A DNA stretch of 64,000 bases from positions 51,834,001-51,898,000 of the forward strand of contig CM059432.1 of assembly GCA_030390025.1 (NCBI GenBank), given 5' to 3'. The notes under the pieces were generated by a model, which was given only the letters and a program-made list of their open reading frames with translations, was not told where the DNA came from and did no database searches. How positions within the stretch are numbered: position 1 is the first letter of the stretch; each line of letters opens with the position of its first letter. This stretch comes from Squalus acanthias (Eukaryota). A program made the translations under genes and the position numbers. Positions 38,663 through 49,990 of this stretch are shown piece by piece.

Positions 38663-39336
38663 TGGAAAGAATGGGCTCCAAGCTCCGCAAAAAGCCCTGT
38701 GCCAAGTTGGTGCTGGGTTCCTCCATGCTCATTGACCACAGGCTTTCTGGTAGGCTTCCCACTGCACCAAGCATTTCAATGTGTATACCCATAGGCCTTC
38801 TTCTGTAGCCTGCCCCATCTGAGTCCTCTGCAGCAGAACTCGTGAGTGATCTCACCCTCTGGGGAGCTGGCACCTGCGCTCCTCTTACCCCCTGCCCTGG
38901 CTGCAGGCTACTCGTGCCCAGTGTCTCACCACATGCAGATCCCTCGCCTAAGCTATCCTCTAATTTATGTGGAGTGTCAGTATCTGAGCTGGTGGCTGCG
39001 AGTGTGAAATCGAATGACAGTGCTGTGTCTTCATCATCACTTCCTTCTCCCTTCTCCACCTGTTGCTCTGCCACTGCTGTCTGGCCAGGTTGTTGTTCTT
39101 GGGTATTGGAAAGGAGAAAGGCACAAGGGTAGGGTTGTGGTGCGGGGAGGGGGGAATGTAAGATGTGCATGCTTACACCATCTGCAGCTTTTAAATCAAA
39201 ACATATTGTGTGATGAGGGGGTAGTGGGATGTGAGAAGGAGGATTAGGTATGAGGACACCGTCATCTTGGATGGTTTCAGCCCCGCCACTGGCCACGGGC
39301 TCAGGGATTGCCGCTCCAGTTATGTCCAGCACCATT

Positions 39337-39530
39337 TGTGGTAACACAATACAGCTTCCTGTGACTCGAACTTTATTGCATCACTTCCTGTGATTAGTCC
39401 AGGATAAATACTGGACTGATCAGTTGGATCCTGGCGAGGCATAGAGTAAGATCTCTTTTGTATGTAGCACCTTTTTAGTTGATTAAAGCTTACTTTAAGT
39501 TCACCACGCGTAAGGCTCATTCTTACGACA
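39337..39530 (+). repeat. 5' LTR
   Basis: tgtggtaac...ttacgaca. Three substitutions relative to the 3' LTR by eye. Confidence 0.97.
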
Positions 39531-39608
39531 ATTTAATCAACTTTGGAAAACTTCGCACTCAAACTTTTTGGACGAACTCGGAACTAAGGATCCAGGGAAT
39601 CACCCATC

Positions 39609-41459
39609 ATGGAAAACATCCTTAAACCATCGCGTCTTGACTTGGACCCAAACACCCCAGCAGCCGGTAAGGTGTGGAAACACTGGTATCGCACGTTTGA
39701 CAATTTTCTTGAATATTGTAAGGCTGATGATAACTCAAAGTTACGGATACTCATCAACTGTGTCACCCCGAATGTATTTCAGTATGTGGAGAAATGGGAC
39801 AGTTACGAGGAGGCAATTCGGACGCTTAAGAGACTATATACTAAGACACCGAATGAGGTCTATGCCAGACATCTACTAGCTACAGCCCAACAAGGGCCGA
39901 AGGAATCCATTGATAAATTCCTCCAAGAGCTTCGCAGACTTAGTATGGACTGTAACTTTCGGGCGGCCTCAGCTGAGCTGTACCATGAAGAAATGATCCG
40001 TGATGCTTTCATCTGCGGGCTTGCCTCCCCATTTATACGCCAGTGTCTACTGGAAAGTAAGACACTTGAGCTTCAGAAAGCTTATGACATGGCTTGCTCT
40101 CTAGATCTGGCAAAAAGAAATGCAGACCTTTATACAGTGCCCAGACCTCGGTCTACTGCCTTAACTACAGTCAGGCAATTTAAGAGGCCACAGGTAAACT
40201 CTATTAGGGAGGTCTTTATCCCTGACGATCAATCTGATGACTTCACTGATGAAGAGGATGATGACCCCACTGTGGCAGCCTCTTGGCAATCTAAGAAATG
40301 CTTCTTTTGTGGTGATGAGTTCCACCCTCGGAAATTCTGCCCTGCTCGCAATGCGTTTTGCAGTCATTGCAACAAAAAGGGTCATTTTGCAAAGGTTTGC
40401 CTATCAAGAGCCTCTACGAGGGCTTATCAAGCTAAGTCCTACCGAACTGCCCCGGTAAGGGCCTATCAAGATGTTCCGGCTAAAATCTATCGTGCTTCCT
40501 CTCGAAGAAACACACCTAGAGTTTCAGCCACTCTTTGTGCAACGACACCAATTACAGCTGCTTGTCCTCAGAACCTATTCCATGCAGCTACAAAAGCATC
40601 AATTAATGGACATACTTTAGATGCCTTAATTGACTCAGGTAGCACTGATAGTTTCATTAGGGAACAGATTGTTGCAGAGTTAAAGCTACATGTTTTCCCA
40701 TCGGACCAGGCAGTTGCGATGGCTCAGTCATCACTTAATACCAGAATTTCTGGCTTTTGTATGGTTGAAATAACACTTAATGGTCGCAGGTATCCCTCCA
40801 CCCGGCTTTCGGTGCTCAAGGACTTATGTAGTGATCTTATCTTAGGGCTGGATTTTCAAAAGCAGCATAAGAAGCTCACCATTGAGTTCGGCGGATCCAA
40901 ACCTGAACTCACTATTTCTAATATACTACCTCGAGTACCGTTCTGTGCATTGTCAGCAGCTTCACTGGATGAACCCTCACTGTTTTCCAGTATCCCTCCT
41001 CGATGCAAACCGATTATAACAAAGTCACGACGTTTCAGTCAGGAAGACCAGTCTTTTATTGCGGCTGAGATTTCTCGGCTTTTAGCAGAGGATATCATCG
41101 AGCCTTGTTCGTCGCCATGGCGCGCCCAGGTCGTTATTGTTAAGAACCCTCTACAACCTCACAAGAAACGGCTGTGCATTGACTATTCACAGACCATCAA
41201 TCAATATACGGACTTGGACGCATACCCATTGCCGCGCATCGATGATATGGTTAATAAATTGGCTGAGTACACGGTGTTCTCAACATATGATCTAAAAAGT
41301 GCCTATCATCAGGTACCCTTGAAGGTCTCAGACAAGCAGTATACGGCCTTTGAAGCCAATGGACGGCTGTATCAATTTGTCGCCTCCCCTTTGGGGTCAC
41401 TAATGGAGTGGCTGTCTTCCAGCGAGCAATGGATGACCTGGTCAAACAGGAAGACTTGA
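39609..41459 (+). CDS. gag-pol: Gag-protease-RT N-terminal part of the polyprotein (true frame ends at about 41378)
   Basis: Two CCHC knuckles (CFFCGDEFHPRKFC, CSHCNKKGHFAKVC), protease LIDSGS, RT SPWRAQVVIV, RLCIDY, YPLPRID and YDLKSAYHQV. Confidence 0.93.
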   Translation: MENILKPSRLDLDPNTPAAGKVWKHWYRTFDNFLEYCKADDNSKLRILINCVTPNVFQYVEKWDSYEEAIRTLKRLYTKTPNEVYARHLLATAQQGPKESIDKFLQELRRLSMDCNFRAASAELYHEEMIRDAFICGLASPFIRQCLLESKTLELQKAYDMACSLDLAKRNADLYTVPRPRSTALTTVRQFKRPQVNSIREVFIPDDQSDDFTDEEDDDPTVAASWQSKKCFFCGDEFHPRKFCPARNAFCSHCNKKGHFAKVCLSRASTRAYQAKSYRTAPVRAYQDVPAKIYRASSRRNTPRVSATLCATTPITAACPQNLFHAATKASINGHTLDALIDSGSTDSFIREQIVAELKLHVFPSDQAVAMAQSSLNTRISGFCMVEITLNGRRYPSTRLSVLKDLCSDLILGLDFQKQHKKLTIEFGGSKPELTISNILPRVPFCALSAASLDEPSLFSSIPPRCKPIITKSRRFSQEDQSFIAAEISRLLAEDIIEPCSSPWRAQVVIVKNPLQPHKKRLCIDYSQTINQYTDLDAYPLPRIDDMVNKLAEYTVFSTYDLKSAYHQVPLKVSDKQYTAFEANGRLYQFVASPLGSLMEWLSSSEQWMTWSNRKT

Positions 41460-43543
41460 AGGATACGTTTCCTTATCTGGACAATATTACTGTCGCAGGT
41501 CGCAATCAGCGGGAACATGACGCCAATCTCCAACGATTTTGGGACGCACTCCAGCACCGTAATTTGACATTAAATGCAGCTAAATCCATTGAGTCACAAC
41601 CAACCATCAACATCCTTGGCTATTGTGTGGGCAATGGCATCATTAAACCTGACCCTGAAAGGCTTCGCCCACTCCAAGAACTCCCGCCACCTAAGAATCC
41701 GGCCTCCTTGTGCCGGGCCCTCGGCCTGTTTGCATACTATGCTAAATGGATTCCTAACTTCTCGAACCGAATCCAACCTCTACTGAAGGCCAGCACATTC
41801 CCACTAGACACAGCGGCTGTTGCAGCCTTTAACCTCCTGAAAAAACAGTTGGAGAAAGCGACTCTTCACTCCATCGACGAGAGTCTTCCTTTTGTCGTTG
41901 AGTGTGATGCCTCGGAGGTGGCGATCTCGGCCACTCTGAATCAGGAAGGTCGTCCGGTGGCATTTTTGTCCAGGACTTTTCAAGGGGCTGAGCTACATTA
42001 TCCTCCAGTCGAGAAAGAAGCTACAGCCATCATAGAGGCAGTACGGAAGTGGAGTCATCTCCTAGCTCGCCAGCACTTTACCTTAATCACGGACCAGCGA
42101 TCGGTCGCCTTCATGCTCGATAATCGAAAACGGACCAAAATTAAAAATAATAAAATCCAGCTTTGGCGGCTGGAATTGGCCTCTTTTGGTTACACCATCC
42201 ACTATCGACCTGGCAAGGAGAATGTGGCTCCGGATACCCTCACACGAGCATTCTGCTCCGCCATGGCACCCTCTACGCTCGTAGACATCCATGATGGGTT
42301 GTGTCATCCGGGCGTTACTCGCATGCTACACTTCGTGCGGTCCCGAAATCTCCCATTCTCTACCGGGGATGTAAAGAAGATGTGCTCGGACTGCAGAGTC
42401 TGTGCGGAATTGAAACCTCGGTTTTTCCGCCCCTCGGGTGGTATACTCATACATGCGACCCAGCCAATGCAACGGCTTAGCATCGATTTTAAGGGGCCGT
42501 TGCCCTCTTCAACTCGCAACATTTATCTATTGGCCATGGTTGATGAGTATTCCCGTTTTCCGTTTGCCTTTCCCTGCCCCAATATGCTGACGACCACGGT
42601 TATCAGCTGCCTTGAGCAGGTATTTGCTTTCTGTGGCATGGCATCCTATGTTCATTCGGATCGGGGCCCTTCTTTTATGTCAGGAGAACTCAAGGCCTAT
42701 CTCTCGGAACGGGGTATTGCTGCCAGCAAAACGACGCCTTATCACCCGGTCGGGAATGGGCAAGTCGAGCGTTTTAACGCTATCATCTGGAATGCGGTAC
42801 GTCTGGCTTTGAGATCTCGGGGCCTACCCAACCAGCAATGGGAAGCAGTACTTCCAGACGCATTACACTCCACACGGTCCCTCCTTTCGACCGCCACAAA
42901 TATGACGCCTCATGAACGGTTCTTCCGATTTCAGCGTCGCTCATCCTATGGGATATCTCTCCCATCGTGGCTGACTGCACCGGGACCAGTGCTACTCCGA
43001 AGATATGTCCGGGCGTCTAAGAATGACCCCCTGGTAGATGAGGTTGAGCTCACTGACGTCAACCCTACCTACGCCTATATTCGGTATCCTGACGGTTGGG
43101 AATCTACCGTGTCATTGCGGGATCTGGCTCCCTGCCCGCCGAAACATAGAGGGACACCAGGGGATGATATTGTACCAGGCACATCTCTGGGCTCGCCAGG
43201 TGCCTCTCATCACGATCTGTATCTGACGCCGGCTGGTACCTCACTCCAGCGTGCCGACCTGGGGCAGACTGACTATGAGCCCGTCGGGGCTCGCACGCGC
43301 AGCCACGATCCACCCCGTACCGTACGCTCGGAAACGGATCTGCCACAGCCCTGCCCGACACCCGTTCGGGCACCAGTACACAGTCAGAATCGTCCTGACC
43401 CCTCACAGAGCGGGCTGGATCACTCGGACTCTGGTCCACGGCCCGCGGCGGGTAAACGGGCTAGGGGCCCTCTACCGCTACGAGAACCCAAACGGGTGTG
43501 GCTCTCCCTCGTCCAGCGGCTACGAAATGGAGGGAGAATGTGA
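41379..43543 (+). CDS. pol: Pol C-terminal part (RT, RNase H, integrase) after a 1-nt frameshift
   Basis: RLPFGVTNGVAVFQR, YLDN, RNase H VECDAS...EKEA..TDQ, integrase H-H-C-C, IDFKGP, HSDRG and NGQVERFN. Confidence 0.93.
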
Positions 43544-43609
43544 TAACACAATACAGCTTCCTGTGACTCGAACTTCATCCCGGCCTCCTAATCTTTTGGG
43601 GGGGGAGAA

Positions 43610-43803
43610 TGTGGTAACACAATACAGCTTCCTGTAACTCGAACTTTATTGCATCACTTCCTGTGATTAGTCCAGGATAAATACTGGACTGATCAGTTGG
43701 ATCCTGGAGAGGCATAGAGTAAGACCTCTTTTGTATGTAGCACCTTTTTAGTTGATTAAAGCTTACTTTAAGTTCACCACGCGTAAGGCTCATTCTTACG
43801 ACA
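43610..43803 (+). repeat. 3' LTR
   Basis: Follows the PPT and is the same length as the 5' LTR. Confidence 0.97.
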
Positions 43804-44770
43804 CCGTTTCTTCCATGAGGTTTTGGGCATGCAGATACGTCTCTCCCCCTACAGATAGCCCCTGCTGTCTCCGGTTATGTGCCAACTTGTCCTGCAAGAG
43901 AGAGGGAAGTCTGTCAGTGAGTGTGGTGCAATGTGTTTGGGTAATGTGCTTGACATGGTTGAATAGCTGGCAGTGTGTGCAAGCTGTGAGATGTGGGTGT
44001 GAGACAGTGCTACGTTTGTGAGGGTGAGGTGAAGCTTTGAATGTGAGGTATGAGTCATGTTTGATAGAGATTGTTGGTGGTGAGTGATGGGGGTGCATTG
44101 AGCAGTGAGTGAGGCTAGTGGTGCAGTTGGTGGGATAAGGCATTTGAAGCTGAATTCACTGACCTAGACCATTTGTGTGAGGATATTGAACATCTTGCGA
44201 CACTGCATCCAGGTCCTTGGGGCTTGACTCCTGGCATTGACCGCCATGGCTACCTGCCCCCACTCCTTTCGCAGAGTTTGTCTGGAGGGCCTCCCGACCC
44301 CCTATGGATAGAGGACCTCTCTCCTCCTGTGCACCTCTTTCACCAAGGCCTCCAGTGCATCTCTCCCCTGTTGCGCCATTAGTCACTCTACTTACAGGTC
44401 AGACTCTCTTTCCAGCCACTTCCAGCACCTGCTCCAGCCAGAATATACCTTCCCTTTAAGAGGTGCAGGCTGGCTTTAAGTAGTCCAGGCTAGCTTTAAG
44501 TGGTGCTAGCCTTGCACAAACATGGGACCCCTGTTGAGGCATGCAGCCATTCCACAGCGCGTTTAGCATTAGGTGCAAGCTGCAATCATTTAAATTAGCA
44601 GGCTGCATGAAGTTTGCATGCTGCCTGCATCGGACTCAATGGGTGTGGGCTAATCGCGCATCACAATACCCGCGCCCGTTTTCGGGGGCTATCGAATTTA
44701 GCCCCCCATGACTACATGGTGAAATACAGTGTCAGGGGCCTGAGTTATAAGGAAAGACTGAAGAAACTTG

Positions 44771-47639: not shown

Positions 47640-49990
47640 GGGCCTAGAAATTCCCCGTTGTAGTGCTGGCCGTTAAGGCCGGTTTTGTTGAAAAAATGAC
47701 GGGTGCCTCACTTCTGCCTGCTTCCAGCACGGGACAAGGCGGCCACCATTTTGGTGAGGGACATAGCGCTGACGTTGCCAGCGTTGGCCTCTCAAATTTA
47801 AATGAGCTGATCGTGATGTCAGTCGGCGTGCAACGCCTGTTTTGACGCCAAGACTGCGATTTTGGATGTCACTGCACGCCATAACAGCCTGTCCTAACTA
47901 CGCAAAGAAAAATGTGCGTGAAGTAGCCCTGCAGAGACGCTGTCAGTGCTTCTTAAAGGGACACACACATCTTTCAGGTAAGTTTGGATTTCAGCTTTTG
48001 GACTTTTTTTAATATTTTATTGAAGTAGTGGCTTGGTGCAATACATTTAAAAAGTTGTTAAAGTGTGCAGGGAGTGCTGCTGGACACTTGCAAGGCTTTA
48101 GATGGTAAAGGAAGGCCTCTGAGAAAACAGAAAATGCTGTAAATATTAAGCAGGTCAGGCAGCATCTGTGGAGAGAGAAACAGAGTTAACATTTCAAGTC
48201 AAGATGCTGCCTGACCTGCTGAGTATTTCCAGCATTTTCAGCCTTTATTTCAGATCTCCAGCATCCGAAGTATTTTGCATTTGAGAAGACCACTTGCTCA
48301 CAGTCCTGGGCAGCACATGGAGATGAAGCAGAGACTGCAAAGGGGACAAGCTGCTCACAGAGGGAAGAGGTAGAAGCAGAAAAGGAAGAAGCAGAAGAGG
48401 AGGAAGCGGAAGGAAGGATGCAACCCAGACAGCCCTTTTCTGGTCAGGATATCTGTGATGGAATCTGGCAGTACCAGTGACCACAACCCCAATTCCCCTT
48501 TCAAAATTTGTCCCAAATCTTACCTTCCCACTGTTACTGACCATCTTGGCCACAATGCTGAAATAAAAGCCACAACAAAGCAAACTTTCCAATCCAATTT
48601 TATCCATATATGCATAGAATATTACATCAAAAAATCAACTAATCACCCTTGTGCATTCCCTTAGTGACTGTCTTGCAAATGCCTTTTCCTTTCCTAGTCA
48701 TGTCGCGCAGTGCTACCCCAGTGGCTACAGCATGGCTGGTGGAAGGCTGCTGACTTTCAGTGGGGGACACTGCAGATGGCCTTGCAGGATGATCTCAAGA
48801 AACTGGTGGCTGGGAGTGTCAAATCGAGTGATGGTGTTTCTTATTCTTATTCTTCTTCACTCTCCTCTTCCTCTTCTTGGTCAACCACTGGCTGGGCAGC
48901 CTGGATTTCTTGGGTGACTGAAATGAGGAAGGCACAAGGGTAGGGTTGTGATGAGGGAAGAGCGGGAAAGCAAGAGATACATGCTTACACCATGTGCAGC
49001 TTGTATATCAGAAGAGATTGTGGGATGTGGGGGAAGTGGGATATGAGAAGGAGGATAACATATGAGGATACCAGCATCTTGTATTCTTTCAGCCTCGCCG
49101 CTGGCCAAGGGCTCAGCCATGCCCCTATCAAGAATGGCCTGCACCATCTCCTCCAAGGGGGTGAGGTGAAGATAGGAATGTGAGATGTGCCTCGTGTTTG
49201 GTAGAGATTGTTAGTAAATAAGTGATGGTGGGGGGGTCGTGCATTAAGCAGTGTGTGAGGCAAGTGGTGGAGTTGGTAGGAGACAGCTTTTGAAGATGCA
49301 TTCACTGATCTTGACCACTGGTCTGAGGTCATGAAGCTTCTTTGGGCACTGGAGCCAGGTCATGGGGGCGACACTGCTGGCAGTGACGGCCTCGGTGATC
49401 TGGTCCTGCATCCTTCTTTCTGGAGGGCCTCCTTTCCCTCTGTGGATAGAGGGCCTTTCTTCCAGTGTTGACCCCCTGCACAAAGCTGGGGTGCTGCATG
49501 CAAGACCCTGGGTGCCCTTTTCTTGGCCTGATGAGCCATTTGTGTTGGTGCTGAAGCACTTTTACCATTTTTTTACGTGCAGACGGCTGTTCAGCTTTAA
49601 CAGCTGAAGACTGCCATTTTGAAATTATTTTTAATGCTGTTTTTTCAGAAGGCAGTTGAGCTCTATGAGCTAAAGACTACCTATTTTTAAATGATTTTTT
49701 ATTTTTTTATTTTAGAAGGCAGTTCCCCTTTAAGGGCTCAAGACTGCTTTCTAAAATGAAAGCCTAGCTTTAAGAAAAATGCTGCCTCGCTCCAGGAACG
49801 CTACGGTCACACTATATTGGGCCTCCTGCCTGAAACAGCGTGTTGCATGGTAGGTTCTGCGCTGCAATCATTTAAATCAGCAGGCAGCACTAAAATAATG
49901 GTGCTGCCTGCGCTCTTTTTATGGGCATGAGTTAACCTCGCCCTGCAGTGACACCGCCCGTTTTCATGCATTATCCGATTTCTAGACTCA
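47640..49990 (+). mobile_element. Non-autonomous Harbinger derivative (transposase mostly deleted, Myb-like relic on the minus strand)
   Basis: Termini ggcctagaaattc / gatttctagactc. Minus-strand PMTWLQCPKKLHDL...VK relic at about 49300-49540. Paralogous to 57770-59940. Confidence 0.75.

Follow-up and report, generated by a model that had tools for sequence, protein, structure and literature searches.

A Ty3/gypsy retrotransposon of Squalus acanthias with a putative primer-binding site complementary to its own LTR

To our knowledge, self-priming, i.e., priming of reverse transcription with the element's own RNA and not with a host tRNA, has been shown experimentally only in the Tf1-type elements of fission yeast. 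It is described as a hallmark of the Tf1/sushi chromoviruses and has been predicted in Tcn1-like elements and in some copia lineages (PMC10085805, PMC6317226). In Tf1 the first 11 bases pair with the primer-binding site (PBS), the RNase H cut falls between bases 11 and 12 (PMC7175516), and a structured 5′ UTR is required (PMC10085805). Tj1 has been read as self-primed like Tf1 (PMC4600332). The vertebrate sushi elements and the wider Tf1/sushi group are predicted self-primers, some of them in vertebrate genomes (PMC6317226, PMC10085805), and the same prediction has been made for some fungal elements (PMC6934838) and for the plant Ty1/copia TAR lineage (Houba, Osr-1; PMC6317226). A further set of described elements is of interest here for its compact structure. 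Steamer and the Mag C-clade (SURL-like) measure about 4.5-5 kb and have one ORF between LTRs of about 150-220 nt; they are present in many phyla of aquatic animals, often under a K02A2.6-like annotation (PMC8905726). The Steamer-type elements (Steamer, branches C9/C10) carry a tRNA-Leu PBS, TGGTGTCAGAAG, directly after the LTR (PMC8905726), a tRNA-Asn site has been reported for MchSLE1 (PMC11046912), and Benachenhou et al. describe 'Mag C' elements with short LTRs and an AYANAACA end (PMC3601003).

The element analyzed here lies in a 64,000-nt stretch of Squalus acanthias DNA, referred to below as the window. Like Tf1 and Tf2 of Schizosaccharomyces pombe and Tj1 of S. japonicus, it has a LTR-adjacent PBS complementary to its own LTR/RNA, no tRNA site, and U5 hairpins between the complementary arms. 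The integrase of those elements has a chromodomain (PMC10085805), whereas the window element is without one; their hosts are yeasts and their RT reads YxDD, whereas the window element has an animal host and a YLDN RT; and their 5′ UTR forms a three-duplex 'pretzel', whereas one long duplex with a stacked hairpin is predicted here. Similarly, the Tf1/sushi group, to which the Tcn1-like elements of fungi and non-seed plants belong, consists of chromoviruses, whereas the clade of the window element lacks a chromodomain, and this clade gave no more than 276 bits against every non-clade gypsy protein compared. The TAR elements share a PBS complementary to their own LTR, but they belong to a different superfamily (copia domain order) and live in different hosts. 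Steamer and the C-clade are similar to the window element in size and LTR length, and K02A2.6-like proteins occur in the sister group of its clade. A Steamer-like identity was nevertheless set aside, because the clade is without TGG and pairs with its own LTR, with Steamer entering this comparison through its published description. The LTR end given for 'Mag C' resembles that of several relatives of the window element, which we take as a lead only. No report of self-priming in a non-chromoviral animal gypsy clade was found in the open-access papers searched. As judged from sequence, the window element is likely to be a copy, dead by frameshift, of a young and abundant Ty3/gypsy family that primes with its own RNA, and not with a host tRNA.

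The element and its family in the Squalus genome

The Ty3/gypsy-type LTR retrotransposon spans positions 39337-43803 of the window, with a single gag-pol frame that carries a frameshift inside RT. Its features are the following (coordinates, strand, description and basis).

39332..39336, +, left target-site duplication CCATT; read directly, the right copy being CCGTT at 43804-43808, with one mismatch
39337..39530, +, 5′ LTR of 194 nt, TGT...ACA; direct repeat, 98% identical to 43610-43803
39477..39487, +, proposed self-primer AGTTGATTAAA in the LTR; exact complement of 39532-39542, covaries in relatives
39488..39500, +, small hairpin GCUUA/UAAGU, predicted in the MFE fold to stack on the primer arm at its 3′ end
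39509..39527, +, U5 hairpin CGTAAG(G)/(T)CTTACG; read directly, 7-bp stem in the MFE and centroid folds
39531, +, one-base spacer A from the LTR end (CA) to the primer-binding site; read directly
39532..39542, +, putative primer-binding site TTTAATCAACT, complementary to a segment of the LTR of the element itself; sequence and covariation
39609..41459, +, gag (two CCHC knuckles), aspartic protease and N-terminal half of RT; translation and Pfam
41354..43543, +, rest of RT (YLDN), RNase H, integrase (H2C2 and core) and a Pro/Ser/Arg-rich tail; translation and Pfam
43529..43575, +, second purine run (GGAGGGAGAA) followed by a repeat of the LTR start (~37 nt); read directly
43598..43609, +, polypurine tract (PPT) GGGGGGGGAGAA, immediately 5′ of the 3′ LTR; read directly
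43610..43803, +, 3′ LTR, with the same primer segment at 43750-43760; repeat finder and sequence

The gag-pol frame starts at the ATG at 39609 and is carried by two open frames (39588-41459 and 41354-43543), the second in the -1 frame relative to the first, with the break between ...YQF and RLPFG.... Pfam detected Asp_protease_2 (1.4e-10) and RVT_1 (3.3e-07) in the first part and RT_RNaseH (1.1e-26) and rve (6.1e-17) in the second; Integrase_H2C2 was matched at 4.2e-05 and 24.0 bits, which is under Pfam's cut-off of 25.5 bits. The CCHC knuckles of gag read CFFCGDEFHPRKFC and CSHCNKKGHFAKVC. Paired TG...CA LTRs, a target-site duplication and a PPT are the structural marks of a Ty3/gypsy element, the order of the Pfam domains, gag(CCHC)-PR-RT-RNase H-IN, is that of Ty3/gypsy, and the best solved relative was Ty3 Gag-Pol (E = 1.9e-34). 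No chromodomain was detected in the element by Pfam at E <= 0.01. The RT catalytic motif, YLDN, is located at 41474-41485 (ORF2 residues 41-44) and aligns to the YLDD of Ty3. The preliminary description had listed two CCHC knuckles, a YLDN RT and no chromodomain, and the translations and the Pfam search gave the same picture.

A change at the second aspartate of motif C is unusual for a working polymerase. When a strict motif pattern was applied to proteins P0002-P0121, the 70 that matched comprised 64 with Y-x-D-N and 6 with Y-x-D-D, and with a looser pattern the matches listed from the other 51 proteins were mostly Y-x-D-N. The presence of hundreds of near-identical copies of the family suggests that the YLDN polymerase works. 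A search of the open-access literature for a YLDN motif in a retrotransposon found no paper.

The second purine run with its copy of the LTR start (43529-43575) precedes the true PPT and 3′ LTR by ~70 nt and contains the pol stop codons. It was present in 40/40 scored genomic copies, at 99-100% identity, and might represent a duplication of the site of plus-strand priming. Outside the element, a 184-nt direct repeat of 78% identity has one copy abutting its left side (39152-39335) and the other ~5 kb to its right (48964-49147); the insertion was apparently into or next to an older repeat.

With the LTR-leader as query, 822 candidate copies were obtained from the 3.7-Gb genome, and the 40 that were scored were 99-100% identical. 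Both arms were unchanged in all 29 of the other genomic copies that were fetched, so that the complementarity proposed in the preliminary description is kept in other members of the family. These copies differed from the window element at two positions each (39435 and 39452 in 28 of them, 39452 and 39564 in the remaining one), and, since they are all alike, they are uninformative on covariation. A protein search of the same genome gave 51 scored places, and in 31 of these a frame of 1315 residues is uninterrupted. By these comparisons the family is very young and abundant, and the window copy is among the broken ones. A second family of the clade was not detected in this genome with the catshark protein P0115 as query, which matched the same family only. 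The contigs of four sequencing runs break off at the edges of the LTR, where their flanks vary as in genomic DNA, and hence they are uninformative on the start or end of the RNA. A second LTR subfamily, known from its LTR part alone (39379-39532), was observed in contigs of runs X1, X4 and X12, with 11 differences and 3 indels over 152-154 nt. It has 39477-39487 intact and T39476>A, a change that, with T39543 retained, would bring the pairing to 12 nt.

Pairing at the LTR edge in the element and its relatives

The 5′ LTR terminates with ...CTTACGACA at 39530 and is followed by the spacer A39531. The next 11 nt, TTTAATCAACT (39532-39542), are the exact reverse complement of AGTTGATTAAA (39477-39487), and the pairing ends on the outside at T39476/T39543 and on the inside at G39488/A39531. 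Between the arms, CGTAAG (39509-39514) and CTTACG (39522-39527) form a hairpin that is comparable to the U5-IR stem-loop. No TGG was found within 13 nt of the 5′ LTR, the nearest one, at 39544-39546, being 14 nt away. Hence, a LTR end at 39530 without TGG, an exact 11-nt complement with unpaired neighbours on both sides and a U5 hairpin at 39509-39527, all of which had been claimed beforehand, could be read directly in the sequence, and the hairpin was also present in the predicted folds. A displaced tRNA site at the TGG of 39544-39546 was considered and rejected: apart from its distance to the LTR, this triplet is TGA in the contigs of all four runs, and it is absent from the relatives. The window contains no tRNA genes.

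The RNA of the window element (39477-39545) was predicted to fold at -15.4 kcal/mol (z = -3.71), with 0/200 shuffles as stable, into the long stem, a hairpin right after the primer arm and the 7-bp hairpin of 39509-39527. The long stem was present in the MFE structure of each of the 12 elements folded, and a hairpin starting directly after the primer arm in 11 of the 12. The small hairpin at 39488-39500 would sit at the proposed RNase H cut site, and it is plausible that the junction between primer arm and hairpin is a mark for the RNA cut. In the predicted folds the central duplex was present and the remaining stems were local hairpins, i.e., the Tf1-type three-duplex 'pretzel' was not reproduced.

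Of 8000 candidates from sequence collections, 1664 proteins matched the second-frame protein at E <= 1e-10, and the best 120 of these were 55-79% identical. A scan of metagenome contigs yielded 383 related stretches; the best 80 of these were kept as loci L031-L110, and the metagenomic relatives had 42-75% pol identity. No poly(A)-tailed contigs were found among L031-L110. G-rich ...GAGAA/...TGAA runs similar to the PPT of the window element precede the 3′ LTR in L041, L042, L043, L098, L034 and L070, and the other relative loci examined have purine-rich runs ending ..GGGTAAA or ..GGGGCGAA before the 3′ LTR.

The pairing was analyzed in a set of 13 elements (the window element and 12 loci with both LTRs in the contig) chosen by self-BLAST LTR pairs only, so that the presence of a stem played no part in their selection. 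At the 5′ LTR edge, 12 of the 13 had an exact complement of 9-17 nt in their own LTR, and in 10 of the 13 it was at least 11 nt long. When the host flank after the 3′ LTR was compared with that LTR as a control, the longest exact complement was 0-8 nt. L081 and L082 had 14 nt with one mismatch, and L098, with an apparent 87-nt LTR pair, had no complement. The 41 loci whose sequence includes the pol-upstream region were scanned as well: the layout was detected in 15, and it was seen by eye in L034 and L070, whose contigs are circularly permuted, which gives 17/41 in total. In all of the remaining 24 loci the frame is interrupted no more than 1089 nt before the pol match, and an intact upstream part would need an open frame of about 1600-1700 nt; these loci are therefore decayed or truncated and provide no clean counter-examples.

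In the layout common to the 17 loci, a LTR-internal arm with (A/T)T(A/T)AAA at its end is followed by a loop of 38-66 nt, CA, one A and the complementary arm, which is 11-17 nt long and begins with T(T)TAA; the proposed self-primer of the window element (39477-39487) ends in the same clade-wide core. The 'CA + A' before the arm was found in 15/16 tabulated loci, L085 having AA + A. By contrast with this constant frame, the arms themselves occur in at least 12 different forms, such as CAAGTTGATTAAA, CAAGTTTATTAAA, TTTAGTTAGTTAAA, TTTAGCTAGTTAAA and TGAGTCGTTTAAA, or TAAGCTGTTAAAA, CTTTTGTTTGTTAAA, TTTATGTTGATTAAA and TTTAGTGGAATAAA. The outer end of the pairing also varied in the relatives (11-17 nt) and did not fall on one conserved initiator-like motif.

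Covariation was measured on an alignment of 14 rows (A2). In this alignment 89.9% of the cells were paired and both sides had changed in 14/17 pairs, but the rows had been picked for showing the stem, so that these statistics are partly selected. None of 500 shuffles reached the observed value on any of five measures, and when the partner was slid by 1-3 columns the pairing fell to 27-50% of cells. RNAalifold predicted a 13-bp stem unaided, with 10/13 pairs covarying. Thus, the covariation between PBS and LTR that the preliminary description had asked about was detected in the form of compensatory changes. Close relatives differed by matched double changes (L031 vs L033, L041 vs L043), and single mismatches occurred in individual old copies (L032, L054 and L081). 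Matched double changes together with lone mismatches in old copies are the pattern expected if replication rewrites one arm from the other.

Proposed priming mechanism and alternative explanations

In LTR elements minus-strand synthesis starts at the base adjoining U5, and hence the arm that abuts the LTR is in the position of the primer-binding site. Since there is no TGG at this arm, the 3′ end of a mature tRNA would not bind there, and since the arm changes between relatives in step with their own LTR, a primer shared from the host is ruled out. The relatives, with different sequences, keep the pairing of the LTR arm with the post-LTR arm at the exact LTR edge, and this covariation supports the self-priming that had been proposed for the window element. 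The resulting reading is a Tf1-like self-priming, in which we infer the 5′ end of the RNA, its cleavage and the rewriting of the PBS by analogy with Tf1.

In this mechanism the 5′ LTR would contain the start of the transcript, either at A39477, as put forward in the preliminary description, or further upstream, and the segment 39477-39487 would fold back on 39532-39542 and enclose a 44-nt loop with two small hairpins. The RNase H of the element would then cut the RNA at the inner end of the duplex, i.e., after A39487, where the hairpin is predicted to stack, and the freed 3′-OH would prime minus-strand DNA, which would copy A39531, then U5 and R to 39488, and be transferred to the 3′ R. The plus strand would copy the primer, so that the primer sequence would be written into the primer-binding site, and this would explain why the arms stay complementary while both change in the relatives. 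Finally, the integrase would trim the single A after the terminal CA. A TATA-like ATAAATA is found at 39404-39410, about 70 nt (not about 30) upstream of 39477, and this position, together with the variable outer limit of the pairing, suggests that the RNA may start upstream of 39477, in which case the primer would have a 5′ tail. The ATTAAA at 39482-39487 could be a poly(A) signal; at its position the relatives read GTTAAA, TTTAAA or AATAAA.

Other explanations of the complementarity have to be weighed against self-priming. The pairing might have arisen by chance, or as a by-product of A/T-richness, and have no function. The arms are indeed A/T-rich and 11 nt is short: a complement of at least 11 nt starting 0-5 nt after the LTR was found in only 2 of 20000 shuffles of the 30 nt post-LTR, but of 20000 segments of 194+30 nt drawn at random from the window, 84 had such a complement. 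Such a coincidence is nevertheless hardly credible in view of the compensatory changes that keep the pairing in the relatives, and of the difference between the 5′ edge (9-17 nt in 12/13) and the 3′ flank (0-8 nt). A functional stem is also conceivable that only brackets R-U5, in packaging, dimerisation or positioning of the RT, the primer being a host RNA such as a tRNA fragment. Lin and Levin are said to have shown in 1998 that U5 stem-loops near the PBS are required in retroviruses and in Tf1, and a need for such stem-loops would fit this role. However, the 3′ arm lies one base after the terminal CA in 15/16 loci, which is the point where the minus strand starts, there is no TGG within 13 nt of the LTR, and the triplet at 39544-39546 fails for the reasons given above (TGA in the contigs of the four runs, absent from the relatives). 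In addition, at least 12 forms of the arm, each tracking its own LTR, would not be allowed by a shared host primer, and we consider a host RNA very unlikely as the primer.

A different course of priming with the same LTR segment would be that it acts in trans, from a co-packaged RNA, or as an internal piece of the leader that is freed by two cuts. Both would be permitted by an upstream RNA start, as the TATA-like box ~70 nt upstream and the variable outer pairing limit allow it. By contrast, the loops of 38-66 nt and the stacked hairpin predicted in 11/12 folds would fit an intramolecular fold-back, and priming in trans or from a twice-cut leader appears improbable. The fold-back of the element's own 5′ RNA is therefore the reading that we retain below.

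Placement, host range and significance of the clade

In the longer-protein search the clade scored at least 419 bits and the next proteins no more than 341 bits, and by pairwise BLAST over the homologous region the values were 418-1123 bits within the clade and 163-276 bits for other gypsy/retroviral proteins. A quick maximum-likelihood tree (49 rows, 610 columns) was rooted on two endogenous retroviruses of the same genome; it contained one chromodomain-bearing row (P0230) and was built without named Tf1, sushi, SURL or Steamer sequences. The clade was monophyletic in this tree (SH-aLRT 100, stem 1.02) and sister (95) to a non-chromodomain group with K02A2.6-like insect proteins and the Squalus locus L114, and P0230 was placed in the other half. 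A tree constrained to join P0230 with the clade was worse by 34 log-likelihood units (AU p = 0.026), the tested group having been named after the tree had been seen. The precomputed Pfam domains of the best 120 homologues contained no chromodomain (PF00385; 0/120). Within this sampling, the suggestion that the element might belong to a lineage outside Tf1/sushi is supported by the chromodomain-less element and homologues and by the separate position of P0230, and the clade is probably a self-priming lineage outside that group.

The chromodomain search of the own genome gave 16 matches, all in frames of no more than 251 residues; with none in a long open frame, this genome offers no chromovirus for comparison. 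The search of the control genomes for clade-assignment references gave 0 matches, and the cluster look-up of related proteins returned only 'uncharacterized protein' names. The own-genome matches to PF17921 (Integrase_H2C2) were mostly retroviruses with an extra RNase H, together with one tRNA-primed gypsy family. The strongest of these integrase zinc-finger matches, L112, L113, L115-L118, L121, L122, L124 and L125, belong to endogenous retroviruses; these have a second RNase H domain, and their long open frames reach 1512 residues. The gypsy family (L114, L120 and L123) provides a contrast to the window element, as it has TGG one base after the LTR and no self-complement of at least 6 nt at the LTR edge. 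This TGG primer site may resemble the 3′ end of a tRNA-Ser. L114, at G000:C18:34730800-34740700, is a compact single-ORF element with a 1335-residue frame and a gag with a PNMA-like match; the LTRs of the family are 224-245 nt long, and they are 100% identical in L114 and L123 and 97% identical in L120.

Related proteins were found in cnidarians (Nematostella, Xenia, Hydra and Sanderia), crustaceans (Palaemon and Caligus), an insect (Periplaneta), a tunicate (Clavelina), molluscs (Gigantopelta and Argonauta), nematode and fluke parasites (Trichuris and Opisthorchis) and, among fishes, catshark (Scyliorhinus), electric ray (Narcine) and hagfish (Myxine). The pol proteins of these named hosts are 52-75% identical to that of the window element, and their distribution is patchy across phyla, which may reflect horizontal transfer.

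What is new here is a self-priming signature with strong support from covariation in a separate, animal-wide gypsy lineage without chromodomain, with its own fold and a YxDN polymerase, and the inclusion in the same lineage of a very recently amplified vertebrate family. We give about even weight to the proposal that a deep non-chromoviral Ty3/gypsy lineage, with a YxDN RT and a range from cnidarians to sharks, evolved self-priming independently of Tf1/sushi, and that freedom from host tRNAs, and perhaps from tRNA-fragment silencing, may partly explain the near-identical pol across phyla and the hundreds of copies in a vertebrate. If the self-priming of this lineage is confirmed, tRNA-independent priming would have arisen more than once within Ty3/gypsy, and annotation pipelines that define the PBS by a tRNA match would misjudge the whole clade. 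The family would then also provide an animal system for asking whether self-priming escapes tRNA-fragment defences and eases the spread of an element from host to host.
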